Origin: an uncultured Chloroflexia bacterium
GTDB lineage: Bacteria; Chloroflexota; Anaerolineae; Anaerolineales; UBA11858
Direction: 5' to 3'
NCBI GenBank assembly: GCA_963695575.1
Contig: CAVOGS010000014.1
Coordinates: 328,114-392,113, forward strand
Length of the DNA stretch: 64,000 nt
The notes beneath the pieces are model-generated. The model was given only the letters and a program-made list of their open reading frames with translations, was not told the DNA's origin and did not search any database. Made by a program: the position numbers and the translations under genes. This document shows positions 4,066 through 26,184 of this stretch, one piece after another (the stretch's first letter is position 1; each line of letters starts with the position of its first letter).

Positions 4066-4097
4066 GGTTGGGTAACAGAGCAAGATCGCAACTTAAA

Positions 4098-7240: not shown

Positions 7241-7657
7241 TTATTTTTTCAGCGGATTTGGCCCCAGTTCTCTGATGCGTTCTGTCATTTCCTGGGCTGC
7301 GTCTGCAAAGGATTTACCCTGGCCGCCTGAGAGGAAATACATATTAAGTCTTTCTCCATCCAACCCAATATCGTCCAGTATATTTTTTGTATGTTTCACT
7401 TTTAATTCACCCCTTTCATTGCCGCGAACATGGTGGCAGTTCCCTTTGGAACAAGCGATCACATACACTCCGTCCGCGCCATCCTCAAACGCTTTCAGGA
7501 GATATCTGGAATCAGTTTTACCAGTGCAGGGCAGTTTGATCAGCTTCACATTGGCTGGATATTCGAGCCGCAGGGCGCTGGCTGTATCAGCAGCCATATA
7601 GCCGCAATATATACACATAAAGGCTGTAATCTCAGGTTCAAAACGCTTGTCACTCAT
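7241..7657 (-). CDS. mvhD: Methyl-viologen-reducing hydrogenase delta subunit (MvhD/FlpD-like) protein
   Basis: FMCIYCGY...KLPCTGK...ACSKGNCHH Cys pattern of MvhD. ATG 7657 overlaps the hdrA stop (ATGA), so I prefer it to the listed 7669 start. Confidence 0.8.
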   Translation of the reverse strand: MSDKRFEPEITAFMCIYCGYMAADTASALRLEYPANVKLIKLPCTGKTDSRYLLKAFEDGADGVYVIACSKGNCHHVRGNERGELKVKHTKNILDDIGLDGERLNMYFLSGGQGKSFADAAQEMTERIRELGPNPLKK

Positions 7658-10600
7658 AATTCCACCCAACTTCCAAGGACCGGGAAGTCCGGTACCATGA
7701 TCTGATTATCTGTGTAATTCAAAAGTTGGATAGCATTTGCCGGGCACTCAGCTGTGCAGGTGCCGCAGCCGTGGCATAAAGTGGGTTCGATATAAGCAGC
7801 GCCTCCTAGTTCTCCAACCCCTGTGAACTCATCCTTAACACGTGGGATCTCAAAAGGACAGGTGCGCATACATGTTAAGCAGCCGACACATTTATTTGGA
7901 TCCACTACTGCGACCGTTCCTCCAAAGTGGAATGGTTTTTTACTCAAAATGGTTATCGCCCGGCCAGCTGCTGCCTGCGCCTGGCTGATGCTTTCCTCGA
8001 TGAACTTGGGATAGTGAGCAATGCCGCAGACGAAGATTCCCTCTTCCATGAAATCCATTGGGCGCATCTTGATGTGGGCTTCGAGGAAAAAACCTTCATT
8101 GGAAATGGGCACATTCAACAATTTAGCCAGTTCATTGGTTCCACTGGAAGGCTGGATGGATGTGCTAAGGACCAGCAAATCCGGGTGCAGAACAAGTTCA
8201 CGATCCAGCATTTGTTCATGCATTTTTACTATAATCTGACCATTATCATGGTCTACGGATGGTGGGTGTTGATCATCGTAACGGGCGAATATCACTCCCC
8301 GGTCCCTGGCTTCTGTGTAGTACTGTTCCCGGAAACCGTAAGTGATGATGTCTTTATATAACACTGTTACCTGGCAATTGGGATTAATCGTTTTTAGACG
8401 GATTGCGTTTTTAATAGTGCTGATACAGCAAATCCTGGAGCAGTATTCGTAGGTTTCTTCCTTGGGTTTGACACACTGGATCATTGTGACTTGTTTCAGG
8501 TTTGTTATCTCGTCAATGTGAAAGGCCAGTTTGTCTTCCAGCTCCAGCTGGGTGATCGCGCTTGGATGTTCACCAAGCAGATAATGATTTACCCTCGATT
8601 CCTGCCCTCCGGTGGCTACTATGGTAATTCCGTGAGATATCTCACTTTGGGAGCCGTCGTGATGTTTTAAGATTGCGTGATAAGCGCCGACATGGCCGTC
8701 ATGTTGAATGATCTCGGTTTTGGTCATCACTGTGATGTGTTCGTGGGCGATGATACGGTTAACCAGATCTCGCAGTAATCTATTGGGATCTTCCCCTTCA
8801 ACAAGATAGTGGACTTTCTGTAAGTTTCCGCCCAGGTATTTGTCGCGCTCAATAAGAACGACATCATGTCCTGAATCAGCGATTGAAAGGGCAGCCGTCA
8901 TTCCGGAAACGCCACCACCAATAACCAGGGCACGCCTATGGGGGGGAATAGAGGATTTGTAAATTGGCTCCAGTTCCGCCGCCCGACCGACACCTACTCG
9001 AACCATTTCAAGGCCTTTGCGGGAAGCCAACTCAGGCTGATGGGGATGAACCCAGGCCGCAAAACCCCGTAAATTCACCATCTCCATTAAGTATGAATTT
9101 AATCCGACTTCTCGAACCGTTTTTTGGAATAAGGATTCGTGAGTCCTGTGACTGCAGCCCGCAACGACTACCCGATTGAGGTTGTGTTTTCTGATTGAGT
9201 CCTTTATTTTCTGGAGTCCTTCAGGAAAACAACCGTATCCGATATCTTCGGTGTGGACCACGTGGGGAAAATCAGCGGATCTTTCAAGGAGGTTATCAAT
9301 ATCAATAATTCCCTGCATGGTTGGAAAACAGCGGCAGCTGAACACGCCTATCCTGGGGTCCTGCCCCTGAATGTCTATCTCAGGCGGGAATCCTTGATCA
9401 GTCAAGAACGGATATTCTCGCGTGGAATAGGAATTCCCCAGTTTATTCTGGAATAAACGCATTACATCACCAGCAGCGCCTGCGGAGTCAATAATGGTTT
9501 CAGCGATCTCCTTGGGTGAGGAGAATGCACCGCAAACATAAATGCCTGGCTGGCTGGATTCCAGGGGATTGAATTTATCTGTCTGGCAGAATCCGTATTC
9601 ATTGAGGTCAAAGCCGAGCTGACTGGAAACGATAGAGGCTCCGCTGGGGGGCCGGACTCCTACAGACAGAACGATCATATCAAAACGATCTTCCTTGATC
9701 TGGCCGCCATTTTCCGGGTCTGGATACCGGATGATGAGATCCTTTGTTTGGGGATCTTCCTGGATGTCCGAGATCCGGCAGCGGGTGTATTCTACGCCGT
9801 ATTGACTTGTAGAACGATGGAAGTAGGCGTTGTATTCTTTGTTGAAAGCGCGTTCGTCCATAATAAAAATCTGGCAGTGAACTTCGTCCAATCTTTCTTT
9901 GGCTAGAACAGCTTCCTTGGTGGCGTACATGCAGCAAATTGACGAGCAGTAAGGGTGTTTCTGGTCCCTGGAGCCGATGCACTGCAACCAGGCAATTCGC
10001 TTAGGCGGTGTATTGTCAGAGGGGCGAAGAAGCAATCCTTCGGTTGGGCCAGAGCGGCTTACATACCGTTCATACTGCATGCTGTGCACAACGTTCGGGT
10101 AGCGCCCATAACCATATTCACCTAATTCTAGGGGATCGGTCAGGGTATAGCCCATGGCCAGGATGATGGCACCAACCTGGATGGTCTCTTCCCAGGGTTC
10201 TTCAGCGAGATTAATGGCGTTGGTTGGGCAGACATCAACACAGCGGCTGCAGCCTTCGCAGTACTCACCTTTATCGATGTAATACGTATCAGGCAATGAT
10301 CGGGGAGCGCTCTTGTGAACGGCATTCCTGGTGACTATACTCTCCTGAAATTCGCTCGGTAAACGTTCAGGACAGGAAATTGCGCATAGCCCACAATTTG
10401 TGCACAGGGCAGGATCAACATAGCGTGGTTCTCGTAAAAGGGTGATCCGGAAATCTCCTGCCTGGCCTTCCGCAGACTTGATCTGGGTTCTGGTCATCAC
10501 CTCGATATTTGGATGCCGGTTGTGGTCCATAAACGAGGGTGAAATCGCTGGACGAGTGCAGCCGTAGCCGTGATCCGAAGTTCCCCGGCATAAGACGCAA

Positions 10601-10776
10601 TCATGGGTCGGGAACATATAACCCAGCTGGGCAACCCGTCCTCCAAGACCGGGATCCCGTTCAGTCAAATATACTTTTAATCCTGCTTCGGCGAGGTCAG
10701 CGGCGGCCCTCATGCCGCCAATACCTCCGCCAACCACTAAAACTGATGCGGCAGGTTGGTGATGTTCACTTATCAT
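7654..10776 (-). CDS. hdrA: HdrA-like heterodisulfide reductase subunit A family flavo-iron-sulfur protein, enlarged two-module form (1040 aa)
   Basis: N-terminal VVGGGIGGMRAA followed by FPTHDCVLC. A second dinucleotide motif VIGGGVSGMTAA lies mid-protein. There are four CxxCxxCxxxCP ferredoxin motifs (CTNCGLCAISCP, CEGCSRCVDVCP, CVGCLTCMRTCP, CHGCGTCTAECP). Confidence 0.8.
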   Translation of the reverse strand: MISEHHQPAASVLVVGGGIGGMRAAADLAEAGLKVYLTERDPGLGGRVAQLGYMFPTHDCVLCRGTSDHGYGCTRPAISPSFMDHNRHPNIEVMTRTQIKSAEGQAGDFRITLLREPRYVDPALCTNCGLCAISCPERLPSEFQESIVTRNAVHKSAPRSLPDTYYIDKGEYCEGCSRCVDVCPTNAINLAEEPWEETIQVGAIILAMGYTLTDPLELGEYGYGRYPNVVHSMQYERYVSRSGPTEGLLLRPSDNTPPKRIAWLQCIGSRDQKHPYCSSICCMYATKEAVLAKERLDEVHCQIFIMDERAFNKEYNAYFHRSTSQYGVEYTRCRISDIQEDPQTKDLIIRYPDPENGGQIKEDRFDMIVLSVGVRPPSGASIVSSQLGFDLNEYGFCQTDKFNPLESSQPGIYVCGAFSSPKEIAETIIDSAGAAGDVMRLFQNKLGNSYSTREYPFLTDQGFPPEIDIQGQDPRIGVFSCRCFPTMQGIIDIDNLLERSADFPHVVHTEDIGYGCFPEGLQKIKDSIRKHNLNRVVVAGCSHRTHESLFQKTVREVGLNSYLMEMVNLRGFAAWVHPHQPELASRKGLEMVRVGVGRAAELEPIYKSSIPPHRRALVIGGGVSGMTAALSIADSGHDVVLIERDKYLGGNLQKVHYLVEGEDPNRLLRDLVNRIIAHEHITVMTKTEIIQHDGHVGAYHAILKHHDGSQSEISHGITIVATGGQESRVNHYLLGEHPSAITQLELEDKLAFHIDEITNLKQVTMIQCVKPKEETYEYCSRICCISTIKNAIRLKTINPNCQVTVLYKDIITYGFREQYYTEARDRGVIFARYDDQHPPSVDHDNGQIIVKMHEQMLDRELVLHPDLLVLSTSIQPSSGTNELAKLLNVPISNEGFFLEAHIKMRPMDFMEEGIFVCGIAHYPKFIEESISQAQAAAGRAITILSKKPFHFGGTVAVVDPNKCVGCLTCMRTCPFEIPRVKDEFTGVGELGGAAYIEPTLCHGCGTCTAECPANAIQLLNYTDNQIMVPDFPVLGSWVEL

Positions 10777-13891: not shown

Positions 13892-14908
13892 TTACTCTTT
13901 TTGTGCTGAAAATCTGTTGATGAGTTTCATTATGGACCAGAGCACTCCTGCCAGCACAAATACGATCAGGTAATCAATAACGGGGATCCAGGTGATCTGA
14001 TGGATTCCGCCGATGCCTCTCCCGCTGTAGACCCATAATGCCAGGCCAATATAAACAGCCAAAAACGTCCAGCGCAGCCATTTTTGAAGTTTTAGACCGT
14101 GCATCTGGGTGATCACAAATACACCACCAAAACCAAAAGCGAACATAGGCCACATGTTATTGCCCTGCATAACTGCTACCAGGGTACCGTGAGCCAGGAC
14201 TGCAACTTCCTGGAAGATCATCCACCAGCGGTTGGTGTGAATGCGTGTGAAGAACAGACTGCCTTGCAGAAGCAATAAGAACATGTAAAGAAATCCAATT
14301 AAATGACCGCTGGTAGCGATAGTCGGGTGATACCAGAATGTGTAAACAGTTGCCCAGGCAAAGAAATAACCATGATATTTCCGAGCAAAGCGAATTAGGT
14401 CTTTTGAGAAGGGAATTGGTTTTCCGAAAAACATGCCCCTGCGCTGATTTTCCATTAACAAGACCCAGACAAGAAGAATGATTACAGAAACCTGAGAACT
14501 CCAGATGGATACGTCCTGGGCCAGACCGTCATACCAGAGATGGGTTTGCAGGACACGCAGCAGGATAAAAAAGGCATTAACTGCAAGCGCAGCATAATTC
14601 ACCAAGTGGAGCTTGGTACTGTATTTTTTTACTTTAGTCTGGGCATAGTAGATCAAACCCCAGAAGGAGAATTGATGCAGCAGGTAAAACCCCCAGGCCG
14701 TAGCCCTGGTCCAAAATGTAGGATTGGGCAGCTTCCAGTAATACCAGGAGGCTCCCTGATCCGGGTCAAGTTGGATGGCATCCAATTTAGGGCCTAAGAT
14801 CCAGATCAAGCCCACAAAAACCAGACTGGCAACGATCCCAATCCAAAGAACTTTTGTGTCTTGTCGTGGAGCGATATTTTCTTTTGGCTCCTCAACTTTT
14901 CCAGTCAT
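13892..14908 (-). CDS. Hypothetical polytopic membrane protein
   Basis: 338 aa with about 8 hydrophobic, Trp/Tyr/Phe-rich segments. It is tightly packed between neighbouring minus-strand genes. Confidence 0.55.
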   Translation of the reverse strand: MTGKVEEPKENIAPRQDTKVLWIGIVASLVFVGLIWILGPKLDAIQLDPDQGASWYYWKLPNPTFWTRATAWGFYLLHQFSFWGLIYYAQTKVKKYSTKLHLVNYAALAVNAFFILLRVLQTHLWYDGLAQDVSIWSSQVSVIILLVWVLLMENQRRGMFFGKPIPFSKDLIRFARKYHGYFFAWATVYTFWYHPTIATSGHLIGFLYMFLLLLQGSLFFTRIHTNRWWMIFQEVAVLAHGTLVAVMQGNNMWPMFAFGFGGVFVITQMHGLKLQKWLRWTFLAVYIGLALWVYSGRGIGGIHQITWIPVIDYLIVFVLAGVLWSIMKLINRFSAQKE

Positions 14909-14918
14909 TATTTATTCC

Positions 14919-15824
14919 TCATTTGAACAAATCATCTACAGCGGTGGATAATTGATTGTATCGAAATTGATAGCCGGCTGCTAAGAGTCTATTTGGCGCT
15001 ACCTCCCGGCCATCCAGGGCCAGGGTGGCAGCTTCACCAAAAGTCAATTTTAACAGAAAAGATGGAATAGAAAACCAGGCTGGTCTGTTTAGTGTGCTGC
15101 TCAATTGTGCTGTGAATTCTTGATTTGTGACCGGTTTGGGAGCGGTAATATTATAAATTCCCTGGGTTTGGGGATTTTCAATGAAGTATTCAATGCTCTT
15201 CACCAGATCAGTGATATGGATCCAGGACATGATCTGTTTTCCTGTTCCAATAGTACCGCCGATGTAGAATCGGAATGGAAGAGATAACAATGGCAATAAT
15301 CCACCTGCAGGGCTGAGAACCAGACCGATACGCATGATAATCCGCCGTATGCCAAGTTCTTCAACAGACGAAGTCGACTTTTCCCAGGACTGACAAACCG
15401 ATGCCAGAAAATCATCGCCCGGAGGACTATTTTCGCTAACTTGATCCTCCCCCCGGTTTCCATAATAACCGATTGCTGACGCCTGGATGAGAACTTCAGG
15501 TTTGTGAGCCGCTTTTTCCAGGGCAGTGCTGAGTATTGACCCGGCCTGGATCCTGCTGGAGATGATTTCAGCTTTGCGTGTTTTTGTCCAGCGCATCACC
15601 AAGGGATTTTTTCCAGCCAAACTGGAGCCGGCCAGGTTTATCACAGCATTAGAACTATCGATCTCGCTGCTTAAGTCTTGCAGATTCCATGAAATAACTC
15701 TGGCACCAGGCAAGGTTTTTTGTGGATCGCGGCTGACAACCGTTATTTGATGCCCTTTATTCTTAAGTGATCGAATTAAAGCGGTTCCGACCAAGCCTGT
15801 TCCACCGGTGATTAATATATTCAT
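14919..15824 (-). CDS. TIGR01777/YfcH-type NAD-dependent epimerase family protein (SDR fold + DUF1731)
   Basis: MNILITGGTGLVGTALIRSL...; C-terminal APNRLLAAGYQFRYNQL is typical of the DUF1731 tail. Confidence 0.75.
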   Translation of the reverse strand: MNILITGGTGLVGTALIRSLKNKGHQITVVSRDPQKTLPGARVISWNLQDLSSEIDSSNAVINLAGSSLAGKNPLVMRWTKTRKAEIISSRIQAGSILSTALEKAAHKPEVLIQASAIGYYGNRGEDQVSENSPPGDDFLASVCQSWEKSTSSVEELGIRRIIMRIGLVLSPAGGLLPLLSLPFRFYIGGTIGTGKQIMSWIHITDLVKSIEYFIENPQTQGIYNITAPKPVTNQEFTAQLSSTLNRPAWFSIPSFLLKLTFGEAATLALDGREVAPNRLLAAGYQFRYNQLSTAVDDLFK

Positions 15825-15834: not shown

Positions 15835-17161
15835 TTAGTGATTATTTATAACTGGGTTCCTCAGCCAGTCTGTAATTACTTCCCCTTCAGGACCTAAAAG
15901 GTCCTCGATAGCCATTCTGAAAGCATTTAAATAATCTACTAGTTGATCGTACTCAAGTTTTCTGGTGCTGATCAAACCAGAGATCCAATTCAGACTAAAC
16001 CGCAGGTAGTTGATATCTCCCAGCGTCAGTGCTGCGGATATATCCTGGATCAATTGCTGATTGGCCTCAAAGATATCGAGCGTGTCGAAGGTTTTTTGGC
16101 TGTCTGGCAAATTGAGACGCAGGGTACGGTCCAGCTCGGGACGGATTTCTTTCAGTCTCTCCACCAGCTTGCTGTTTTGAGGCGGGTGAGGTTTGATATT
16201 GATCCCGATCCCATTATTTTTGATCAGATCTTCAATCATGGAGATCGCCTCTGGTAAGTTATTCCCAAGGTAAATACCAGGCATTGTTTTAGAAAGATCC
16301 GGGATTTGATCAAAAATCCATCCCCCAAATGCTGCCGGGATTTGTTTCTCTGCCAAGTATATTCAAAGTATTCAATAACGCAGCTGTAGTCGAAAGTCTG
16401 GATGCTGTTAGAACTGCAAGGGCTGGTTTGATCTCCAAAATGACTTCACTTAAGCGCTCATTTGGCACATTAGCACCAAGATAAACAACATCCCAGCCCC
16501 TGTGTTTTAAGAGTAGGGTTAATATCAACAGGGTTATTGTATGCTGTTCACCCGGCGCACAAGCAATCATAATTCTTTGGGCATGAACGGGATTGGGCGC
16601 GGCAGTGATCAGCGTTTCGACCTTTCTAATTGTGATCTCAGAAATAAAATGCTCCTGCTGGACAGTTGCCTCTCCCTGATACCAGAGCTGGCCTACTTTA
16701 TCGATAGAAGGCAGGATCACGGCTGTTAAAACGGTTTCTAATGGAAATTGGGCGAAGGCCAACGATAAGATCTGTTCAGCGTGAGGCTCGTCATAACCCA
16801 GGCAGTATTCAATCCATTTTTCCTGGAGGTCCTCGAGCGTATCAATATCATCATCCATTTGAACCAGCGAATCTACTTGCCTCGCCGGGGGTTTATCTTG
16901 TTGTAAGGGGTCGTTCCCTGAATTAACCAGATCCATCCAGTAGTTAACGGCCTGGCTGATGCGCATCCCTTCTTTTTGCCTTGCCACCAGCCATTTTAAA
17001 GTGGATAGATCATAATCAGAATATAATCGGTGTCCACCCTCTGATCGGGCAGGTAAGGGGAGTTTATAACGCCGCTCCCAGGCACGGATCGTATCGGCTT
17101 TGAGTCCCGTTTCCTGGAGGATCAAATTGAGGTTATAACGCGGTTTTCTTGAAATTGCCAT
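15835..17161 (-). pseudogene. carH: CarH/LitR-type MerR-family, B12-binding photoreceptor regulator (one frameshift, C-terminal extension)
   Basis: MerR HTH (LILQETGLKADTIRAWERRYKLPLPARSEGGHRLYSDYDL). Wx9EH motif LWYQGEATVQQEH. B12-binding Rossmann region with GEQHTITLL...GWDVVYLGANVP. ORFs 16310..17161 and 15835..16356 join with a 1-nt correction near 16353 (...LNIL/AEKQIPAAFGGW...). Confidence 0.75.
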
Positions 17162-17188
17162 AATGTTCCTTATCTTATTATTGGCAGT

Positions 17189-17217
17189 AGTCTAAACCAT
17201 ATCTTACGAGATGTCAA
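17189..17217 (-). promoter_or_regulatory. Putative carH promoter (TTGACA-17-TAGACT on the minus strand)
   Basis: The reverse complement of 17212-17217 is TTGACA and of 17189-17194 is TAGACT, with a 17-nt spacer. An AAGGA RBS sits just before ATG 17161. Confidence 0.5.
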
Positions 17218-17231
17218 GGAAAACAGGGAAA

Positions 17232-17264
17232 TAACTAGACAAAAGATAGACAATGGTGTATATT
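17232..17264 (+). promoter_or_regulatory. Two tandem CarH-type 11-bp direct repeats overlapping a TAGACA-17-TATATT promoter for tspO
   Basis: TAACTAGACAA (17232-17242) and AAGATAGACAA (17243-17253) both fit nAnnTnnACAn. The -35 TAGACA is at 17236-17241 and the -10 TATATT at 17259-17264. Confidence 0.6.
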
Positions 17265-17327
17265 AGGCACAACTTACTGGTACTGAATTATTGGAAATGA
17301 AAATATTAGTTGATGGAGATAAATAAA

Positions 17328-18075
17328 ATGAAAAAAATTACAACTGCTCAAATTGTCACGGTTCTGGCAACGATAATTACCATAACGATCAATGCCCTGG
17401 CGAATATTCTGCCCTTAAATGGATTAAATACCGGAGAGATCTCTGATCGTTTTCAGATCTACTTTGTACCTGCTGGGTATGTATTTTCGATCTGGGGTTT
17501 GATCTACCTGAGTTTGGTGGTCTATACGGTATTTCAATTCTTGCCCAAACAGGCTGATAATCCAGTCTTAAAAAAGATCGCTCCATATTATTGGCTTGCT
17601 AGTTTGGCTAATTCGATCTGGATTTTCCTGTGGCATTACGAAGTATTTTCACTGACCCTGGCAGCGATGGTGGTGATATTAATCGCGCTGCTGCTTATTT
17701 ACAAAGCGCTGGCTGGATCTACCGGACTGGAAAAATGGTTAGTGAAACTGCCTTTCAGTCTATACCTGGGTTGGATCAGTGTGGCAACGATCGCGAACAC
17801 CTCCCAGACTTTATTCTTCTTATGATTGGAATGGGTGGGGAATTGCCCCTGAGATTTGGACAATGGGGATGTTAGTGATCGCTGGTTTGCTGGGTTGGAT
17901 GATGTCCTGGCGCGAAAATGACACACCTTATGTATTAGTTTTGATCTGGGCTTTTATTGGTATTACAGTAAGTCAAGCAGGAACAGCCCTGGTGGTAAAT
18001 ACCGCTTGGGCAGTCGTTGTTCTCCTGGTAATAGCAATAATTGCTGGCGTTTATAAGTACAAGAAAGTGTATTAG
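17328..18075 (+). pseudogene. tspO: TspO/MBR-family (tryptophan-rich sensory protein-like) membrane protein, one frameshift
   Basis: FVPAGYVFSIWGLIYLSL..., NSIWIFLWHY..., LPFSLYLGWISVATIAN resemble the TspO helices. ORF 17310..17825 continues in the +1 frame as ORF 17779..18075. ATG 17328 has a GGAG RBS 8 nt upstream. Confidence 0.6.
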
Positions 18076-18084: not shown

Positions 18085-18921
18085 ATGACTATAAAAATTG
18101 TGACGGATTCAACCTGTGATTTACCTGAAACTGTGATCAAGGAATTGGGTATCACAGTGATTCCTCTCTATATCAATATAGGCAATGAAGGTTTCCTGGA
18201 CGGGATTGATATCTCTCGCCGGGAATTCTATACCAATCTGGCTGATTATCCCGTTCATCCCACAACTGGAACGCCCGGTACATCCGCTTTCTTTAAAGCA
18301 TTTGATGATTTGGTGGATCAAGGGGCAGACGAGATCATGACTATCCACATCTCTGAAAGTTTAAGCGCGACTGTTGATGTCGCCAGGACCGCTGCCAAGG
18401 AATATCAAAAAGTCCCAGTTACGGTCAGGGATTCTGGCCAGCTTTCAACTGGAACGGGTTTTCAGGTCGAGCTGGCAGCCAAAATGGCAAATGAGGGCAA
18501 ATCGCTGGATGAGATCCTGGTCGCATTGGACAGCCTTCGCTCCCGCACCTTTGTAACAGCAGGCTTGGACACGCTGGAGTTTCTAAGGCGCAGCGGACGG
18601 ATGAACCGCTTTATGACCGGGATTGGTAGTTTAATCCAGCTGAAACCAATATTAACTATGAAAGACGGCAAACCAGGGTCCGATCGGGTCAGGACCTCCA
18701 TCCGGGCTGAAAAAAGGCTTATTTCTTTATTAGAAGAGCATCTACCTATTGAGAAATTTGCTCTGGTACACTCCAATGCTCATAAAAAAGCAGAAGAATT
18801 TAAGGCAAAAATCGAGAAATATTTACCTGATGGAGAGATCTTCTCGATGGATATTACACCTGTGATTGGGGCTCATCTTGGTCCTGGGGCGGTAGGGTTT
18901 GCGGTCATTACAAAAGCCTGA
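18085..18921 (+). CDS. DegV-family fatty-acid-binding protein
   Basis: MTIKIVTDSTCDLPETVIKELGITVIPLYI... is the canonical DegV N-terminus; 278 aa. Confidence 0.85.
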   Translation: MTIKIVTDSTCDLPETVIKELGITVIPLYINIGNEGFLDGIDISRREFYTNLADYPVHPTTGTPGTSAFFKAFDDLVDQGADEIMTIHISESLSATVDVARTAAKEYQKVPVTVRDSGQLSTGTGFQVELAAKMANEGKSLDEILVALDSLRSRTFVTAGLDTLEFLRRSGRMNRFMTGIGSLIQLKPILTMKDGKPGSDRVRTSIRAEKRLISLLEEHLPIEKFALVHSNAHKKAEEFKAKIEKYLPDGEIFSMDITPVIGAHLGPGAVGFAVITKA

Positions 18922-18962
18922 CTAATGGGTTTCAGAGCATAAAAAAACAAAAAGGAAAATCA

Positions 18963-19844
18963 ATGAAAAAAGAAAATATTCGCACTTACCTGGGTATTCT
19001 GGTTATCGTCTTGCTGGGACTGGGCGTTGCATTGGCTGGCAGCCAGGGTGGTTATAAAGTAGGCGGAATGCCAATCTATGCCCTGGGCGTCGGATTAGCG
19101 TTTTTGATCCAATGGATTGTATTTGTTCCTGCCTATAAAAATAGGACCGAAAAATACTTCGACTTGACTGGCAGCATCACCTATATTTCTGTGATGATAA
19201 TGGCTGTGATCTTAAGTCCGGAAAGAGATATCAGGACCTGGCTGTTATTGGGATTGGTAGCAATCTGGGCTCTCCGCCTGGGAACATTTTTGTTCCAGCG
19301 CATCAAGAAAGCCGGAGAAGATCGGCGATTCAGAGAGATAAAAGAATCTTTTCCGCGATTCCTTCAAACCTGGACCATTCAGGGTTTATGGGTGACTTTT
19401 TCCCTGGCAGCGGCCCTGGTTGTGGTTACCTCGACAAAACGGGTTGGAGTGGATATTTATCTTGTGCTGGGTTTGTTGGTCTGGTTGATTGGATTTGGAA
19501 TGGAAGCTTTTGCGGATAGTCAAAAGAATCAATTTCGCCAGGATCCAAAAAATGAGGGGAAATTCATCCAAACTGGTTTATGGGCCTGGTCCAGGCATCC
19601 TAATTATTTTGGAGAGATTGTTTTATGGGTAGGCGTTCTGATCATATCTTTACCTGTGCTGGTAGGCTGGCAGTGGGTAGCCTTGATTTCCCCGATTTTC
19701 ATCACGATCTTATTGACCAGGATCAGCGGCGTGCCAATGCTGGAAAAGCGCGCCGATGAGAAGTGGGGCGGTCAAGAGGATTATGAAAACTATAAACAGA
19801 ACACTTCGGTCCTGATTCCGATGCCTCCCAAAGGAGATAAATAA
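18963..19844 (+). CDS. DUF1295 / steroid-5-alpha-reductase-like membrane protein
   Basis: Polytopic; C-terminal WSRHPNYFGEIVLWVGVLI motif is typical of DUF1295. Confidence 0.7.
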   Translation: MKKENIRTYLGILVIVLLGLGVALAGSQGGYKVGGMPIYALGVGLAFLIQWIVFVPAYKNRTEKYFDLTGSITYISVMIMAVILSPERDIRTWLLLGLVAIWALRLGTFLFQRIKKAGEDRRFREIKESFPRFLQTWTIQGLWVTFSLAAALVVVTSTKRVGVDIYLVLGLLVWLIGFGMEAFADSQKNQFRQDPKNEGKFIQTGLWAWSRHPNYFGEIVLWVGVLIISLPVLVGWQWVALISPIFITILLTRISGVPMLEKRADEKWGGQEDYENYKQNTSVLIPMPPKGDK

Positions 19845-20185
19845 TGGTCCTGCAAATCTTAAAAATCATTGGGGCAATAGCCACGATTATCACCGGCGTG
19901 GTATCCCTTTTCTGGCCGCTAAAGGTGCCAGGTTTTACAGGATTGGAGCCAATTGGCGGAAGAGGTATTACCGAAATCAGAACCATTTTGGGAGCACTTT
20001 TTGTTGGTCTTGGTGCTGTTATCCTGTATTACCGCAGCCCGGAAGCCTATACGATCCTGGGGGTCACTTATCTGGCCATGGCTTTGGTCCGCGGGATATC
20101 AATCATTGTAGATCGCTCTGCAATCTCTTCTAATATCATCAGTTTTATCGTTGAATTGGTGTTTGGAATCTTGCTGGTTTTATAA
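19844..20185 (+). CDS. Small membrane protein (possibly DUF4345-like)
   Basis: 113 aa with 4 hydrophobic segments. Its start overlaps the preceding stop (TAATG). The family call is tentative. Confidence 0.5.
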   Translation: MVLQILKIIGAIATIITGVVSLFWPLKVPGFTGLEPIGGRGITEIRTILGALFVGLGAVILYYRSPEAYTILGVTYLAMALVRGISIIVDRSAISSNIISFIVELVFGILLVL

Positions 20186-20197
20186 AGGAAAATCAAG

Positions 20198-20530
20198 ATG
20201 AAAATTGCTAAAGTTTTAACCCTGCTGGGTGTGCTGGCAATGACTGCGGTCCTGGTTTATGGTTTTACCGCCGGAAATTTCTCTGTGGATGGGGGAAAGA
20301 TCCTCCAGAATCCCTGGGGAATCGTTTCCCTGGTGGATCTTTATACTGGGTTTTTCCTGTTCTCAGCCTGGATACTCTTCCGGGAAGGATTTACCGTGAA
20401 ATCCGTTGTCTGGGTGGTATTGATGATGGTCCTGGGATTTTTTACAGCCAGTTTATATGCCCTGATCGCTCTTTATCAGAGCGATGGGGATTGGCAAAAG
20501 TTCTGGATGGGAACCCGAGTACATGAATAG
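20198..20530 (+). CDS. Small membrane protein (possibly DUF1475-like)
   Basis: 110 aa; NPWGIVSLVDLYTGFFLFSAWILFRE. The family call is tentative. Confidence 0.5.
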   Translation: MKIAKVLTLLGVLAMTAVLVYGFTAGNFSVDGGKILQNPWGIVSLVDLYTGFFLFSAWILFREGFTVKSVVWVVLMMVLGFFTASLYALIALYQSDGDWQKFWMGTRVHE

Positions 20531-21200
20531 AATTAAAGAGCTGCAAGATGAGTTAAGAACCGTCTTCGCCGGCAGGGGCCTAAAATTGCTTGATGTAATT
20601 TTGCCCCTGCTGGTATTTTTAGGGTTCAATCCCTGGGTTGGACTGATACCAGCCTTGCTGGCTTCGATTGGAACAGCAGTCCTCTTCTTTGTAATTCGAA
20701 TTATTAAAAAAGACAATTTAGTCTATGCGCTGAGCGGCTTGTTGGCAGTTTTGCTTGCCGCAGGATTTGCAGTGTTGAGTGATTCTGGGGTGGGATTTTT
20801 CCTGCCTGGATTGATTTCCGGCGCCTTAACTGTGCTGCTTTGTTTGGGGAGCATCTTACTTAAAAAACCGCTGGCAGCGCTTTCCAGCCATCTCACCCGC
20901 AGCTGGCCTCTTGCCTGGTATTGGCACGATAGGATCAGGCCGGCATATTCAGAGGTTACCCTGTTCTGGGCGCTGGGATTTGGGTTGAGGTTGGGCTTGG
21001 AATCCTGGTTCTATTTTGCTGGTTCAGTTTCATCTCTGGGACTGATAAGGACATTGATGGGGTGGCCTTATACGATCTTGCTTTTAGTGCTCAGTTATCT
21101 GTACGGGATGTGGCGTTTGGGAGTATTGGCAGGGCCAAGTGTGGAAGAATTTCAAGCTGAGAAACCTGAACCCTGGATGGGGCAAAAAAAAGGGTTTTAA
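20523..21200 (+). CDS. Hypothetical polytopic membrane protein
   Basis: ORF 20484..21200. I prefer the internal ATG 20523 (MNRIKELQ...), which overlaps the upstream stop by 8 nt. About 6 hydrophobic helices. Confidence 0.5.
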   Translation: MNRIKELQDELRTVFAGRGLKLLDVILPLLVFLGFNPWVGLIPALLASIGTAVLFFVIRIIKKDNLVYALSGLLAVLLAAGFAVLSDSGVGFFLPGLISGALTVLLCLGSILLKKPLAALSSHLTRSWPLAWYWHDRIRPAYSEVTLFWALGFGLRLGLESWFYFAGSVSSLGLIRTLMGWPYTILLLVLSYLYGMWRLGVLAGPSVEEFQAEKPEPWMGQKKGF

Positions 21201-21368
21201 CCAAACAGTAATAATTCTTGTCGAGTATTGACTAAATGAAGAGACCCTTACTAACCCTGATTGTCTTGATTAAAAGGGGACATATATCCTTTAAGCGGAA
21301 CCTTGTCCCCTGATTTGGTAAGATAGAGTTCATTAATGTATATCTAAATTCAACAGGTAGGTTTAAGG

Positions 21369-22373
21369 ATGATCCGCAATCAGTGGTATGTTGTTCTGGA
21401 ATCAAACCAGGTCCGAAAAAAACCGATTGGCGTGACACGCCTGGGCGAAAAACTGGTTTTTTGGCGGGACACGGCTGGAAAGGTCAACTGCGCTGTTGAT
21501 CGCTGTCCTCATCGGGGGATCTCATTAAGCCTTGGACAGGTCCACGATGATCATTTGCAGTGCCCCTTTCACGGGTTTGAATATGATAACAGCGGCCGGT
21601 GTGTCTATGTCCCTGCCAATGGCAGAGCTGGGAGAATACCATCCTCGCTGCTTTTGTCATCATATCCAACCCATGAGGAGCAGGGTTTTATCTGGATCTG
21701 GTGGGGACATCAGCCCCTGGAAAATTTACAGCCCCCTGTGTTCTTCGATAATCTGGATCAGTCTTTTGTATACAGCACTGTCCAGGATCCATGGAAAAGC
21801 CATTACTCGCGGGCGATTGAAAATCAGTTAGATGTTGTGCATCTTCCTTTTATTCACCATAATACAATTGGCCGGGGAAATAAAACCGTTATTGATGGTC
21901 CGCTGGTGACTTGGGAAGGTGACCAGAAATTACTGGTTTATGTATTCAATCGACTGGATGACGGTTCTCCACCAAAAAAACCCGCTGACCTCAGTTTGAA
22001 GGAAGCCCGGAGTGTTCATTTGGAATTTATAATGCCCAATCTCTGGCAAAACTTCATCAGTGATGATGTCCGGGTTGTGATCGCTTTTACACCTGTTGAT
22101 GAAAATAACTCGATCTTGTACCTGCGCTTTTACCAGAAATTTGTTCGTTTTCCATTCCTGGGCAAGCTGATAACCTGGTTTGGCATGCCGATGAACTTAA
22201 TTATCGCACACCAGGATCGCCGGGTGGTTATCACCCACAAACCTCAACCAAGTTCTTTTAAATCTGATGAAAAATTGATTCAGGGGGACCTGCCAATCAT
22301 CGAATATCGGAAAAAACGATCCGATTTGAAAGCCCTGGCACTGGAGCTAAAAAATAATGATCAACAGAACTGA
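21369..22373 (+). CDS. Rieske [2Fe-2S] domain non-haem-iron oxygenase family protein
   Basis: CPHRGISLSLG...CPFHGFEY Rieske ligands (CxH...CxxH). The C-terminal catalytic-like domain has DVVHLPFIHH. Confidence 0.8.
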   Translation: MIRNQWYVVLESNQVRKKPIGVTRLGEKLVFWRDTAGKVNCAVDRCPHRGISLSLGQVHDDHLQCPFHGFEYDNSGRCVYVPANGRAGRIPSSLLLSSYPTHEEQGFIWIWWGHQPLENLQPPVFFDNLDQSFVYSTVQDPWKSHYSRAIENQLDVVHLPFIHHNTIGRGNKTVIDGPLVTWEGDQKLLVYVFNRLDDGSPPKKPADLSLKEARSVHLEFIMPNLWQNFISDDVRVVIAFTPVDENNSILYLRFYQKFVRFPFLGKLITWFGMPMNLIIAHQDRRVVITHKPQPSSFKSDEKLIQGDLPIIEYRKKRSDLKALALELKNNDQQN

Positions 22374-23841
22374 GATGAAGGTCCTCGTTACGGGCGCTAC
22401 CGGTTACATCGGGGGAAGATTGGTTCCGGCATTGCTGGAAGAAGGCTATCAGGTCAGGGTATTGGTCCGGGATCCAGAACGGCTGGCAGGCAGAAGTTGG
22501 CTGACGTCTGTTGAGGTCGTTAAGGGGGATGTTCTGCAGATCGAAACCCTGCATTCAGCCCTGAAAGATATTACCGCAGCATATTATCTGATACACAGCA
22601 TGGCAAGTGGCGCTGATTTTCACCAGCGAGATTTGCTGGCTGCCAAGAACTTCAGCAATGCTGCAAAAATAGCAGATGTAAAACAGATCATCTATCTGGG
22701 CGGCCTGGGCGACTATCAAGCTGACTTATCGGAACATCTAAAGTCCCGCCAGGAAACAGGGAAAGTGTTGGCTCAATCAGGGGTTCCGGTAACTGAATTT
22801 CGGGCTGCCGTCATTGTTGGCTCTGGAAGCATTTCGTTTGAAATGATCCGTTATCTTACCGAAAGAGTGCCGGTGATGATCTGTCCGAAGTGGGTCTTTA
22901 CAAAAACCCAACCCATCGCACTCAAGGACGTATTGGCTTACCTGCTGGCAGCCCTGACTACTCCCGGTTCACTTAATCAGATCATCGAAATTGGCGGCAA
23001 AGATGTGATTACATACGGCAAGATGATGCTTGGGTACGCTGAGGGTCGAGGATTAAAAAGGATCCTTGTTCCAGTACCCTTCCTTACTCCAAAACTTTCG
23101 GCATATTGGGTGCATTGGGTCACTCCTGTCTCAGCAGAGATCGCTCATGCGCTGGTTGAAGGACTGAGAAATGAAGTGCTGGTTACTGACCCTTCAGCCG
23201 CTAAGATCTTTCCCCAAATTGATCCTGTTGACTATCAAACAGCCGTTCAAATTGCCCTAGAAAAATTGGCTGCATCTGAAGTGGAAACCCGTTGGACGGA
23301 TTCTCTCACTTCGAGTTTAGGAAAACAAGATCCAGTCCAATTAACCAGCCTGGAGGGTTTGATCATTGAAAACCGCCAGATTAACATAAAAGCGGGGAAT
23401 GGTGAGGTATTCCGGACTTTAACAAGGTTAGGCGGTGAGAAGGGCTGGCTGTATTTCAATTGGGCCTGGCAAATTCGCGGCCTGATCGACCGTGCCATGG
23501 GTGGAGTTGGCCTGCGCAGAGGCAGGAGGGATGAAAATGAACTGCGTGTCGGGGATGCGCTGGATTTTTGGCGGGTCGAGGAGATCCTTGCGGATAAAAA
23601 GCTTCGGTTGCGCTCAGAAATGATCACCCCGGGAGAAGCATGGCTTCAGTATGATCTGGAGAGCGGGGAGGTTGGTGAGGTTAATTTGCGGCAGACAGCA
23701 TATTTTGCACCCAAAGGTTTACCGGGATTATTATACTGGTATGTGTTGTATCCCATTCACGCTTTGGTTTTCTCAGGTCTGATCCGGGGAATAAAGGATA
23801 AAACTGAAAAAAACCAGAGAAATAGGAGGGACATTGCCTGA
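22357..23841 (+). CDS. NAD(P)-binding SDR/NmrA-like protein fused to a DUF2867 domain
   Basis: KVLVTGATGYIGGRLVPALLEEGYQVRVLVRD. The C-terminus (WRVEEI...LRLRSEMITPGEAWLQY) resembles DUF2867. Confidence 0.7.
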   Translation: MINRTEMKVLVTGATGYIGGRLVPALLEEGYQVRVLVRDPERLAGRSWLTSVEVVKGDVLQIETLHSALKDITAAYYLIHSMASGADFHQRDLLAAKNFSNAAKIADVKQIIYLGGLGDYQADLSEHLKSRQETGKVLAQSGVPVTEFRAAVIVGSGSISFEMIRYLTERVPVMICPKWVFTKTQPIALKDVLAYLLAALTTPGSLNQIIEIGGKDVITYGKMMLGYAEGRGLKRILVPVPFLTPKLSAYWVHWVTPVSAEIAHALVEGLRNEVLVTDPSAAKIFPQIDPVDYQTAVQIALEKLAASEVETRWTDSLTSSLGKQDPVQLTSLEGLIIENRQINIKAGNGEVFRTLTRLGGEKGWLYFNWAWQIRGLIDRAMGGVGLRRGRRDENELRVGDALDFWRVEEILADKKLRLRSEMITPGEAWLQYDLESGEVGEVNLRQTAYFAPKGLPGLLYWYVLYPIHALVFSGLIRGIKDKTEKNQRNRRDIA

Positions 23842-24301
23842 TCTAAAGGAATATAAGGATTTTCTGGAAAATGTTAAGATACCTATTCGTTTGGCTGTTA
23901 AGACCGAGTCCGGATGGCCAATGATGCTTTCGCTTTGGTTTATTTATGTGGATGGGTCTTTATACTGCGCAACTCGTAAACAAGCTCGGGTAGTAGCATA
24001 CATACTGAATAATGAGGAATGTGCTTTTGAAATAGCCGGGGATCAGCCGCCTTATTGTGGAATTCGAGGGCAGGCCCGGGCCAGTATTGACCAGCAGCGC
24101 GGTCTAGAAATTCTGGAATTGCTTTTGGATAGATATTTGGGGGGGCGGGATAACAACCTGGCTGAAACGCTACTCAAAAATAGTTCTGATGAGGTCGCAA
24201 TCCGATTGGATCCTATTAATCTATTCACCTGGAACTTTTCAGCCAGAATGAAGGACGTTGGTCCAGGACCAGATTTATTGAATGTGAAAGTGTGTCCCTG
24301 A
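23834..24301 (+). CDS. Pyridoxamine-5'-phosphate-oxidase-like (split-barrel flavin-binding) protein
   Basis: 155 aa. TTG start preceded by AGGAGGG. The overall pattern fits the PPOX fold; the call is tentative. Confidence 0.45.
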   Translation: MPDLKEYKDFLENVKIPIRLAVKTESGWPMMLSLWFIYVDGSLYCATRKQARVVAYILNNEECAFEIAGDQPPYCGIRGQARASIDQQRGLEILELLLDRYLGGRDNNLAETLLKNSSDEVAIRLDPINLFTWNFSARMKDVGPGPDLLNVKVCP

Positions 24302-24349
24302 TGGGAATAGAGGGAAACAATCAACTATGATTATTTACAGGAAGGCACT

Positions 24350-24832
24350 ATGCCCAGAGTTGACTTGAATGTCATTGCACCGGACTTTTCTCTTGAAGCC
24401 TGGGATGGTAAAGCGGTCAATCTATCAGATTTTAAATCTGAAAAGAATGTACTGTTGGTCTTTAATCGCGGCTTTCTTTGACCGTTCTGCCGCCGGCATA
24501 TGGCGCAGTTGCGCGATGATTTTGATAAGTTCCAGGAATTGGACGCTGAAATAGTAGTGCTTGGCCCCGAGGGCAGAGGGGCTTTTCGAACATATTGGGA
24601 AGAGAATGATCTGCCCTTCATCGGATTGCCTGATCCAACCCATTCAGTGTTGAAGCTTTATGGGCAGAAAGTGAACTTGTTTAAATTTGGGCGTATGCCA
24701 GCCATGGTTATCATCGATCAAGCTGGTATGGTTCGATTTGTGCATTACGGTCATTCCATGTCTGATATCCCAACCAACGCTGATGTGCTTAAAACGCTTC
24801 AAACCCTCAATCAGGAGTCAGTAGAAGTATGA
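24350..24832 (+). CDS. AhpC/TSA (redoxin-fold) peroxiredoxin-like protein with in-frame TGA at the active-site Cys position (candidate selenocysteine, U-P-F-C)
   Basis: ATG 24350 (SD aggaagg, 24338-24344) and the listed ORF 24500..24832 are in the same frame. The only interruption is TGA 24479-24481: ...NVLLVFNRGFL[TGA]PFCRRHMAQLRDDF.... Stem-loops follow within 40 nt. Confidence 0.6.
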
Positions 24833-26184
24833 GCTCTATCTGGTGGATCCGGCGCGATCTGCGCCTTGGTGATAATTTGACCTTCCAAAAAGCGCTGGAG
24901 AATCCGCCAGTTCTGCCTGTGTATATACTCGATCCGCTGCTGATAAAAAACGCACCTGACCGCAGGCTGAATTTCCTGTACCAGAACCTCCAATCCCTTG
25001 CCCAGGAATTACAAGCAAGGGGCAGTAAATTGGTTATCAGGACAGGGAAACCGGTTGAGGTGCTCAAAAACTTACTGGAGGAGACCGGGGCATCTTCTAT
25101 CTATGCAGAAGAGGATTTTACGCCCTATGCTCGTGTGCGAAGTGTTTTAATTGGAAGCTGCCTGCCGCTGAAATTGATCCAGGGCCAGCTCGGTCTTCAT
25201 CCTCTGGAGGCCCGTAAAGCAAATGACAAACCTTATCGGGTTTTCACGCCATTCAAGAGAAATTGGCTGGGTATCAATCCCACCATCGACTTGCTGCCTG
25301 TCCCTGATCAGATCCCGACCATCGAAGGTATTCTTTCGGATCTGATCCCAAGTGGAAAAGATGAACCTCTTTTTCCGGCCAGTGAAGAAGCGGCCCGCCA
25401 GCGCTTGGAAAAATTCATTCGCACCAAAATAGATTTTTACCATCTTAATCGGGATCGGATGGACTTGGATGGCTCCTCAAATTTATCGCCATATATCCGA
25501 TTCGGCGTTTTGGGATTGAGGACAGCACTGCACTACGGCATGAAGATGCTGCATGATGTGAACAGCAGGAAAAACTACGAAGGGGTTCAAACCTGGTTAA
25601 GTGAATTATTATGGCGTGAATTTTATATTCATATCATGTTCCATTTTCCCGAATCAAGAACTCAGAATTTCCGTTCTTTATATGATCAACTTCCCTGGAG
25701 GAATAAGGAGGCGGATTTCCAGGCCTGGAAGGATGGCCTGACCGGGTATCCTGTAGTGGATGCCGGTATGCGGCAGTTAAAACAGACCGGCTGGATGCAT
25801 AATAGAGCAAGAATGATCACAGCATCTTTTCTTGTCAAGGATCTGCTTGTTGATTGGCGCTGGGGTGAAAAATGGTTTCAAGAAACCCTGCTTGATGGGG
25901 ATCTGGCAGTCAATAATGGAAGCTGGCAATGGGTGGCTGGAACAGGTACAGATGCCGCACCCTTTTTCAGGATCTTTAACCCTGTCCGCCAAAGCAGAAA
26001 ATTCGATCCAACCACTAAATATATTCGGAAATGGGTTCCTGAATTAGACCATCTGGATAATGATGATATTCACGCCCCCTGGGAGAAAAGAATTAAAGTG
26101 CCAGGATATCCATCCCCGATCGTTGATCATAAAATTTCGCGGGAGCGGGCTCTGCTTGCCTATCGTATAGCCAGCGGTGATTAA
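24829..26184 (+). CDS. phr: Deoxyribodipyrimidine (CPD) photolyase, class I type
   Basis: IWWIRRDLRLGDN at the N-terminus. FAD-binding region TGYPVVDAGMRQLKQTGWMHNRARMITASFLVKDL...DGDLAVNNGSWQWVAGTGTDAAPFFRIFNP. The start overlaps the preceding stop (ATGA). Confidence 0.9.
   Translation: MSSIWWIRRDLRLGDNLTFQKALENPPVLPVYILDPLLIKNAPDRRLNFLYQNLQSLAQELQARGSKLVIRTGKPVEVLKNLLEETGASSIYAEEDFTPYARVRSVLIGSCLPLKLIQGQLGLHPLEARKANDKPYRVFTPFKRNWLGINPTIDLLPVPDQIPTIEGILSDLIPSGKDEPLFPASEEAARQRLEKFIRTKIDFYHLNRDRMDLDGSSNLSPYIRFGVLGLRTALHYGMKMLHDVNSRKNYEGVQTWLSELLWREFYIHIMFHFPESRTQNFRSLYDQLPWRNKEADFQAWKDGLTGYPVVDAGMRQLKQTGWMHNRARMITASFLVKDLLVDWRWGEKWFQETLLDGDLAVNNGSWQWVAGTGTDAAPFFRIFNPVRQSRKFDPTTKYIRKWVPELDHLDNDDIHAPWEKRIKVPGYPSPIVDHKISRERALLAYRIASGD

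Follow-up and report, generated by a model that had tools for sequence, protein, structure and literature searches.

The regulator gene and its domains

The stretch of DNA analysed here, referred to below as the window, comprises 64,000 nucleotides of contig CAVOGS010000014.1 from an uncultured Chloroflexia bacterium (assembly GCA_963695575.1, positions 328,114 to 392,113), and its element of interest is a minus-strand gene for a MerR-type regulator together with the 166-bp intergenic region (17162..17327) that separates it from a divergently transcribed string of genes. The locus probably encodes a CarH-type photoreceptor repressor that depends on adenosylcobalamin (AdoCbl) and is fused to a photoglobin, in other words a DNA-binding "MerR-photocobilin". 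The regulator gene has the following parts.

15835..17161, minus strand: regulator gene, 441 aa after removal of one inserted base; MerR helix-turn-helix (HTH), four-helix bundle, Rossmann B12 domain and photoglobin
16937..17161, minus strand: MerR-type winged-helix DNA-binding domain, aa 1-75 (Pfam MerR_1, E 1.8e-10)
16604..16837, minus strand: four-helix bundle, aa 109-186 (Pfam B12-binding_2, E 1.8e-10)
16649-16693, minus strand: G157-x-x-W160-x9-E170-H171, within the four-helix bundle
16216..16582, minus strand: Rossmann B12-binding domain, aa 194-315, with E205-x-H207, G229-x3-P233 and G279-G280
15838..16185, minus strand: photoglobin-type globin, aa 326-441 (Foldseek on AlphaFold models; conservation in the alignment)
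16348..16363, minus strand: frameshift site, one base more than in orthologues, within AATATACTTGGCAGAG (DNA alignment and frame analysis)

In the sequence as given the regulator is spread over two overlapping minus-strand open reading frames (ORFs), ORF1 at 16310..17161 (283 aa) and ORF2 at 15835..16356 (173 aa). Alignment of the DNA with three related loci (L084, L085 and L001) revealed a single surplus base inside AATATACTTGG (16348-16363), within the Rossmann domain and upstream of its GG motif (G279-G280), and frame analysis indicated that frame 2 opens no earlier than IYLAEKQ. The ORFs were merged between LNIL and AEKQIP, and with the surplus base deleted the protein reads LNTLNIL-AEKQIPAAFGGW. 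The result, 441 aa or 442 codons with the stop, agrees with the length of about 442 codons proposed in the initial annotation and is matched by homologues of about 440 aa. Pfam assigned MerR/MerR_1, B12-binding_2 and B12-binding to ORF1, and neither Pfam nor NCBIfam returned a match for ORF2 alone.

A search with the merged protein found more than 100 homologues of 430-450 aa at 98-100% coverage and 40-69% identity, which, where a source was named, came from Anaerolineales, Anaerolineae or Chloroflexota. A scan for relatives, with one genome taken per species, gave 532 stretches, and the best 80 of these, used below as loci and numbered with an L, are all from metagenome-assembled genomes (MAGs) of Chloroflexota and all reach the C-terminus. 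Residue conservation was counted in an alignment of 116 sequences, in which G157, W160, Q169, E170, H171, H207, G229, P233, G280, G381 and W392 are invariant (116/116) and E205 is kept in 112.

These residues bear out the initial annotation in its description of a MerR HTH joined to a B12 module with a W-x9-E-H signature and a lower-ligand-type His in GEQHTIT. The sequence LWYQGEATVQQEH, residues 159-171, supplies W160-x9-E170-H171, and GEQHTIT, residues 204-210, contains the lower axial His H207 (16541-16543). The recognition motif RxWERRY, the Wx9EH signature that separates light-sensing CarH from CarA-type proteins, and the ExH...GG cobalamin motif have all been defined previously (PMC9304148). 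Here the first is R26-A-W28-E-R-R-Y32, with R26, W28, E29 and R31 invariant and Y32 kept in at least 90% of the 116 sequences, and the third, the classic D/ExH...SxT/V...GG of a Rossmann fold, is represented by E205-Q-H207 and G279-G280 together with a Pfam B12-binding match, and holds only in the frame-corrected protein, the GG lying past the frameshift. The conserved residues of the regulator also cover all four elements used by SignatureFinder, namely GxxW, EH, GxxH and GxxxP (PMC11796333). By sequence, the solved structures nearest to the family profile are those of Thermus thermophilus CarH/LitR (5C8D and 3WHP, E 3e-36). Assignment of the regulator to the CarH/LitR class-I type of MerR proteins, with an intact Wx9EH and lower-ligand His, is thus supported at the sequence level.

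The C-terminal photoglobin domain

The remainder of the protein had been described as roughly 110 extra C-terminal residues of unknown function. The extension itself stood, at about 115 residues, and the want of a function did not, since structural comparison gave it a photoglobin-type fold. The AlphaFold model of the whole merged protein has a mean pLDDT of 88.5, and when it was compared with the Protein Data Bank (PDB) using Foldseek, photocobilins ranked first, above CarH. AbPcob (8J2Y) matched the full model with an E-value of 1.6e-15, a target-normalised template modelling (TM) score of 0.86 and a root-mean-square deviation (rmsd) of 3.0 Å over 334 columns, and SasPcob (8J2W/8J2X) with a target-normalised TM of 0.83; the photocobilin superpositions together cover 334-341 columns at an rmsd of 3.0-3.6 Å. 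CarH chains fitted the full model well over the B12 core of about 200 residues only. At the level of sequence, the alignment of AbPcob 8J2Y spans positions 142-414 of the family profile.

The tail was also modelled alone (pLDDT 84.5), and the top 50 Foldseek matches of this model consisted solely of allophycocyanins, phycoerythrins, the bilin domain of ApcE, the biliverdin-binding smURFP and SasPcob (8j2x), with query-normalised TM scores of 0.6-0.7. In the full model the helices of the tail lie at residues 330-338, 340-350, 360-380, 383-399 and 404-434. Conserved along them are A366 (96/116), N367 (98/116), L370, Q372 (68/116), D373 (98/116), A376, L378, G381, D382 (101/116), W392 (116/116), L396 and Y410. 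As modelled, the C-terminal 115 or so residues are a five-helix globin of the photoglobin type, packed against both B12 subdomains as in photocobilins, and this shifts the closest known relative of the regulator from CarH to the photocobilins.

A profile of the tail searched against 1.84 billion representative sequences found 571 proteins at E<=0.001, and the tail is present in at least 442 clusters at 50% identity. Among the 150 matches listed, it makes up the C-terminal end, or nearly so, of sequences that are either about 440 aa long or shorter and fragment-like, and these 150 of 571 contained no bridge to actinobacterial photoglobins.

The putative operator and the promoters

The intergenic region contains three elements that bear on regulation.

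17232..17253, plus strand: putative operator, two tandem 11-bp CarH-type direct repeats, TAACTAGACAA and AAGATAGACAA
17236..17264, plus strand: promoter-like site of the divergent operon, TAGACA-17-TATATT, 10/12; -35 inside repeat 1, repeat 2 in the spacer
17189..17217, minus strand: promoter-like site of the regulator, TTGACA-17-TAGACT, 10/12; 14 bp from repeat 1, without overlap

The repeats and both promoters had been proposed in the initial annotation and were found again as described: TAACTAGACAA (17232-17242) and AAGATAGACAA (17243-17253) both fit nAnnTnnACAn, the next 11-mer, TGGTGTATATT, is degenerate and does not, and the -35 of the divergent promoter falls within the first repeat. 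The repeat unit proposed there held in its 11-bp tandem of TnnACA and not in the A at position 2, which is absent from the published consensus. In that consensus CarH repeats read nnnnTnnACAn and are arranged in tandem in an 11-bp register, one repeat containing the -35 and pseudo-repeats being tolerated (PMC9304148). The strict tandem (17233-17252) occurs once in the 64 kb, where 0.12 occurrences would be expected by chance, and 11 of 100 shuffles contained at least one. A relaxed form, two copies of TnnRCR, matched 20 times across the window against 20.7 expected, and was therefore uninformative and revealed no second operator.

Comparison of the relatives was more telling. Of 78 orthologous regulators, 24 have the strict tandem within the 260 bp upstream of the gene, where dinucleotide shuffles predict 0.13 and segments drawn at random from these loci 0.2. 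For the published TnnACA tandem the figure is 36 of the 78 (1.0 expected), and for three relaxed repeats it is 9 (0.09 expected). When aligned, the sites have the approximate form wATaTnTACAA-aAtATTGACAA, with a -10-like TGCTAT after a further 17 nt. Upstream there is often a pseudo-repeat and then, some 12 nt higher, the reverse complement of TTGACA. Judged by these counts, tandem repeats of the CarH type have been conserved in the promoters of the family. At most loci the repeats lie on the strand of the regulator and contain its own -35. At L031, L032, L039, L070, L081, L082 and others the tandem repeats were observed about 50-100 bp upstream of the regulator gene on its own strand, and in the clade of the window and at L013, L025, L056 and L061 on the strand of the divergent gene. 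One type of operator thus seems, from its sequence and position, to be placed on either of two back-to-back promoters.

The divergent layout is common to the window and its four closest relatives (L084, L085, L001 and L005). In this clade the divergent -35 inside repeat 1 is TTGACA in the relatives and TAGACA in the window, the -10 is TATATT, TATTCT, TATAAT or TATAGT, and repeat 2 fits N4-T-N2-RCR in all five sequences, inside a 17-nt spacer that is otherwise variable. The TTGACA and TA[AG]ACT of the regulator's promoter are conserved in five close relatives. The initial annotation had expected dark repression of both divergent operons from this arrangement. For the divergent operon, where the repeats lie over the -35 and the spacer, this is most likely and, as far as position can tell, well founded. 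For the regulator's own promoter, with the repeats some 50-71 bp upstream, it is doubtful.

The gene neighbourhood

The regulator is flanked by two genes on its own strand and by a long string on the other.

14919..15824, minus strand: SDR epimerase with DUF1731, directly downstream of the regulator
13892..14908, minus strand: 338-aa multi-pass membrane protein without a Pfam family, downstream of the SDR gene
17328..18075, plus strand: TspO/MBR-related membrane protein, 248 aa, first of the divergent string; split by a +1 insertion near 17810-17825
18085..26184, plus strand: rest of the divergent string (Pfam, synteny)
24829..26184, plus strand: DNA photolyase (Pfam)

After the TspO-like gene the string continues with DegV, DUF1295, DUF4345, DUF1475, DUF3159, Rieske/VanA_C and SDR-DUF2867, and ends with a weak Pyridox_ox_2 match below the cut-off, a peroxiredoxin-like gene with an in-frame TGA and the photolyase; internal promoters may lie in two gaps of the string, at 21200-21369 and 24301-24350. 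In relatives at 66-79% identity the order is kept, with the regulator, the SDR/DUF1731 gene and the 338-aa membrane protein on one strand, and the TspO-like, DegV, DUF1295, DUF4345, DUF1475, DUF3159 and Rieske genes on the opposite one. The 338-aa protein occupies the same relative position in 8 of the 80 loci, at 45-87% identity.

The first gene of the string had been called tspO. It is probably a distant relative of TspO/MBR and not a clear TspO: Pfam TspO_MBR (PF03073) matched neither of the two ORFs in the window nor the 248-aa orthologue of L084, and was found in 6 of 15 orthologues at E<=0.1 (best 4.3e-7), one of which scored 20.1 bits against a cut-off of 24. The profile of this TspO-like family matched no PDB entry by sequence. 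The protein has about 90 extra C-terminal residues and many invariant Trp, and its orthologues were observed in L004-L013, L025, L045, L056, L061, L066, L072 and L084.

Across the family the neighbourhood was surveyed by counting gene families within 5 kb of the regulator at the 80 loci.

SDR/DUF1731, directly downstream: 31-38 of 80
CrtI-like amine oxidase: 29 of 80
DegV: 27-30 of 80
DUF1295: 21-23 of 80
DUF4345: 18-22 of 80
SRPBCC protein: 17 of 80
DUF3159: 16 of 80
DNA photolyase: 15 of 80
TspO-like protein: 14 of 80
phytoene synthase: 11 of 80

CarH/LitR regulators elsewhere control this kind of gene set (PMC9758184, PMC9304148), and gene content supports the view of the family's neighbourhood as a light-protection set with photolyase, crtI and crtB.

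Some distance away on the plus strand lie two further features connected with the presumed chromophore.

4096..4242, plus strand: cobalamin riboswitch (Rfam RF00174, 62 bits)
4504..7162, plus strand: BtuFCD-like operon of Peripla_BP_2, FecCD and ABC ATPase genes, downstream of the riboswitch

The operon is, by its composition, probably a B12 importer that supplies the chromophore, and since the riboswitch precedes it the organism appears to take that chromophore up.

Comparison with known B12 photoreceptors

With CarH and the class I LitR proteins (T. thermophilus 5C8D/5C8E; Bacillus megaterium and Myxococcus CarH) the regulator shares the MerR winged helix with RxWERRY, the four-helix bundle with Wx9EH, the Rossmann domain with ExH...GG, an operator in which 11-bp TnnACA repeats stand in tandem and one of them contains a -35, and, here across the family, the association with carotenoid and photolyase genes. 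It differs in the roughly 115 C-terminal residues that form the globin, and a photoglobin tail is missing from all five LitR classes that Takano's group has described (PMC9758184). It further differs in that the repeats in the clade of the window are placed on the promoter of the divergent gene and not on that of the regulator itself.

In photocobilins a CarH-like B12 domain is followed by a five-helix photoglobin that binds biliverdin beside the corrin, and red light triggers cleavage of the Co-C bond (PMC10979010). The order of the B12 domain and the five-helix photoglobin in SasPcob (8J2W/8J2X) and AbDPcob (8J2Y; Zhang et al. 2024, PMC10979010) is that of the predicted regulator, which superposes over the whole photocobilin chain (TM 0.83-0.86), and the W-x-EH and E/DxH motifs and the Trp at the D ring of the bilin are shared, with W-Y as in AbPcob. 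Photocobilins characterised so far either stand alone or are joined to a diguanylate cyclase, whereas the regulator has an N-terminal MerR domain, and its tail is too diverged to be detected by sequence only.

The fusion of MerR-HTH, B12-binding_2, B12-binding and photoglobin domains was already catalogued in silico, with Chloroflexi among the lineages listed and a sequence from Anaerolinea thermophila in the photoglobin alignment (Schneider et al. 2021, PMC8717448). The MerR fusions are listed there without an operator, a regulon or an experiment; the examples, such as RPI92725.1, share the architecture of the regulator and may belong to the same sequence family. The C46/D49 pair conserved in that photoglobin family is not evident in the regulator. 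A literature search found no paper characterising a DNA-binding member of the photoglobin-B12 proteins. CtMerR of Chloracidobacterium thermophilum (8JBS/8JBT; Yu et al. 2024, PMC11796333) is a MerR-family B12 photoreceptor with the same signature residues and an experimentally shown light response (PMC11796333). Its B12 domain matches the model of the regulator structurally (E about 1e-9), but no photoglobin tail is seen in it: the full chain has 327 aa and the B12 domain alone aligns.

The regulator thus has the sequence and operator features of CarH, save for the His after the Trp and the score against the NCBI equivalog model, while its sensor module, as predicted, is structurally that of a photocobilin.

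A proposed mechanism

On the reading favoured here, that of a CarH-type AdoCbl-dependent repressor fused to a photoglobin, AdoCbl would be bound in the dark in the base-off/His-on state at H207, with its adenosyl group capped by W160, E170 and H171. The dark holoprotein would assemble into head-to-tail dimers, possibly tetramers, the MerR winged-helix domains of which would occupy the two 11-bp repeats. So bound, they would cover the -35 and the spacer of the promoter of the TspO-like/DegV/DUF1295...photolyase string and block RNA polymerase. Light would then cleave the Co-C bond, the oligomer would loosen and release the DNA, and the operon would be derepressed. The photoglobin would pack against the edge of the corrin, where it might either bind a linear tetrapyrrole and widen the action spectrum towards the red, as in SasPcob, or, as has been suggested for AbDPcob, act chiefly as a structural shield. 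The light state of T. thermophilus CarH (TtCarH) with two His ligands is unlikely here, because the residue after the Trp is Tyr, as in AbPcob. Cystobacter CarH is a dimer (PMC9304148), and by analogy two tandem repeats would suit a dimer; the third pseudo-repeat frequent in the family would make a tetramer possible.

Several points weigh against this reading. For all members of the family the binding of AdoCbl, the response to light, the oligomeric state and the binding to DNA are inferences. Residue 161, which follows the Trp and is His in TtCarH, is Tyr in 97 of the 116 sequences and His in 5. The NCBIfam equivalog for CarH, NF052513, gave 122 bits against a cut-off of 400, with only ORF1 scored. 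The tail profile found nothing relevant among PDB sequences at E<=10, so that the photoglobin assignment rests on predicted structure. At the operator, repeat 1 is not independent evidence, because every -35 that resembles TTGACA fits TnnACA as well; the repeats fall outside the core promoter of the regulator, at about -50 to -71 from its presumed start; and the window has two repeats only, with no third in its clade, compared with three for T. thermophilus CarH and four for B. megaterium CarH (PMC9304148). Finally, crtI and crtB were searched for in the 64-kb window and none was found.

Does the photoglobin carry a chromophore?

The strongest alternative is a sub-variant of the favoured reading and does not exclude it. 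It holds that the regulator is a plain CarH-type photoreceptor whose globin has no chromophore and shields the corrin or tunes oligomerisation, with a spectrum that would be that of AdoCbl alone. This may well be so, the scales standing just short of level.

Part of the evidence comes from placing the tail of the family against those of AbPcob and SasPcob, which were rebuilt from HMMER output (the numbering of the paper equals the chain numbering plus 2 for AbPcob and plus 6 for SasPcob). The alignment made with hhalign had a probability of 22% and was used for the register only, in which it agrees with an ungapped alignment anchored on the invariant Trp. In this low-confidence register Asp270, which ligates the pyrrole nitrogens of biliverdin in SasPcob and corresponds to D49 of photoglobins, stands opposite Ala366, and the same alignment places no Cys at the attachment position of phycobiliproteins; both would suit a tail without a chromophore. 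A similar change occurs in AbDPcob, in which the bilin-ligating Asp is replaced by His and the biliverdin occupancy is about 20%, and for which the authors suggest a changed role of the globin (PMC10979010). A heme-oxygenase-like sequence was found neither in the window nor at the 80 loci, though the query was approximate and the test weak.

On the other hand, Trp296 of SasPcob, which packs on the D ring of the bilin, aligns with W392, and polar positions facing helices 3 and 4 are strongly conserved together with this Trp. AbPcob, moreover, keeps its red-light response (PMC10979010). The conservation of N367, Q372, D373 and D382 would argue for some specific ligand or contact and not for a passive cap, and since the bilin-ligating Asp is changed to Ala, yet N367, Q372, D373 and W392 are conserved, the ligand or its mode of binding may differ from that in SasPcob. 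The conserved pair Q372-D373 sits two helical turns past the position equivalent to Asp270. L370-x-Q372-D373 was considered as the photoglobin CXQD motif and rejected, as the numbering of SasPcob and AbPcob puts Asp270 seven residues earlier, opposite Ala366.

A bolder extension is that the family throughout the Anaerolineae forms a two-chromophore transcriptional switch, a CarH-type repressor with a photoglobin that binds a bilin or another tetrapyrrole. This idea is speculative and rather improbable. If it were true, dark repression at the 11-bp tandem operator would be relieved by red as well as green light or, alternatively, would be gated by tetrapyrrole status. The TspO-like protein, as a co-regulated and tetrapyrrole-binding membrane protein, might then be functionally linked to the photoglobin regulator.

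The frameshift and the state of the gene

The initial annotation had named a real frameshift and a dead gene as what would overturn its proposal. The break itself is confirmed, and if it were real the regulator would be dead, since ORF1 ends without having reached the GG motif of the Rossmann domain. The alternative it raises is a real pseudogene, whose protein is cut inside that domain and whose locus is no longer light-regulated. In its favour, the frameshift stands in the sequence as given, the 283-aa product ends before G279-G280 and lacks part of the B12 fold, and the adjoining TspO-like gene is broken too. It is nevertheless unlikely, as the evidence points to an error of assembly. At least six genes of the window are affected in the same manner: each is broken into a pair of overlapping ORFs that lie in different frames, and its halves still align strongly with successive portions of a single Pfam family or a single orthologue.

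The six split genes occupy 2687..3888, 6331..7162 (the ABC ATPase, with halves 6331..6879 and 6872..7162), 15835..17161 (the regulator), 17328..18075 (the TspO-like gene), 26506..27943 and 34651..35887; besides the three just named they encode an HI0933-like flavoprotein, an FGE-sulfatase-domain protein and a GFO/IDH/MocA oxidoreductase.

The two breaks that could be aligned, those in the regulator and the TspO-like gene, are single inserted bases. Such breaks occur in the window at about one indel per 10 kb, a density usual for uncorrected long-read assemblies and not for the genome of a free-living organism, and the six split genes suggest an assembly of that kind. The 173 codons past the frameshift in the regulator remain open and keep every family-invariant residue. 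Truncated relatives (P0010, 347 aa; P0015, 340 aa; P0061, 269 aa) are broken at other positions on long contigs, and the first two have full-length cluster mates (441 and 439 aa) at an identity of at least 90%; the MAG of one truncated relative carries a label beginning with MFD. From the number of split genes, the +1 insertions, the intact residues downstream and these full-length cluster mates, the frameshift is probably an artefact and the gene of the organism intact. Programmed frameshifting in the regulator was rejected, the orthologues being single ORFs and five other genes of the window being split.

Alternatives without photochemistry

A third possibility is a cobalamin sensor independent of light, a MerR-B12 regulator that reports the availability of B12 or acts like CarA, without photochemistry. 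B12-binding MerR proteins without a function in light do exist, for example CarA of Myxococcus xanthus (PMC9304148), and the B12 riboswitch-controlled importer lies 10 kb away. The CarA type, however, lacks the Trp of Wx9EH (PMC9304148), whereas all 116 sequences here keep the motif; the genes nearby are those for photolyase and carotenoids and not for B12 metabolism; and the top structural matches are proven photoreceptors, all of which makes this alternative very improbable. Least credible of all is a classical MerR-type activator that would bind a palindrome in a long-spacer promoter and twist the DNA to activate it, for, although in close relatives the two -35 boxes, lying back to back, make up an inverted repeat (TGTCAAG-N17-CTTGACA), this is simply a pair of divergent -35 hexamers and in the window it is imperfect, both promoters have spacers of 17 nt and not 19-20, and the element conserved across the family is a direct repeat in an 11-bp register.

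Other observations in the window

The peroxiredoxin-like (AhpC/TSA) gene just upstream of the photolyase (24350..24832, plus strand) has its in-frame TGA at 24479-24481, within the redox motif VFNRGFL-TGA-PFCRRHMAQL and at the first Cys of CxxC. The same TGA is present in nine of nine orthologues (L010, L022, L025, L043, L045, L047, L053, L056 and L066), and by this conservation the gene probably encodes a selenocysteine (UxxC) protein. A SECIS-like fold was sought after the TGA, where there is a hairpin, the folding of which is no better than that of shuffles. Elsewhere, 7241..10776 on the minus strand encodes a 1040-aa protein with several 4Fe-4S and pyridine-nucleotide-disulphide oxidoreductase domains, adjoining a homologue of FlpD (the delta subunit of methyl-viologen-reducing hydrogenase); this region is a heterodisulfide-reductase-like module unrelated to the regulator.

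Significance

Among B12 photoreceptors with a direct action on DNA, CarH alone is, to our knowledge, well understood, and it is in use as a green-light optogenetic switch. Photocobilins extended B12 photochemistry to the red by means of the photoglobin, for enzyme or stand-alone forms only. The family described here joins the photoglobin to a CarH-type DNA-binding module, with a defined repressor, operator and regulon, and thereby permits a direct test of whether B12 sensing coupled to a bilin controls transcription; it could also yield a repressor-operator pair of broader spectrum. The regulator of the window is in itself one more instance of a catalogued architecture, from an error-prone assembly. 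The leads lie at the level of the family, in the operator consensus, the regulon, the change from Asp to Ala and the spread across the Anaerolineae, and are useful rather than surprising. They indicate that many non-phototrophic Anaerolineae have a light-induced protection programme that combines photolyase and carotenoid genes with lipid or membrane proteins whose function is unknown.

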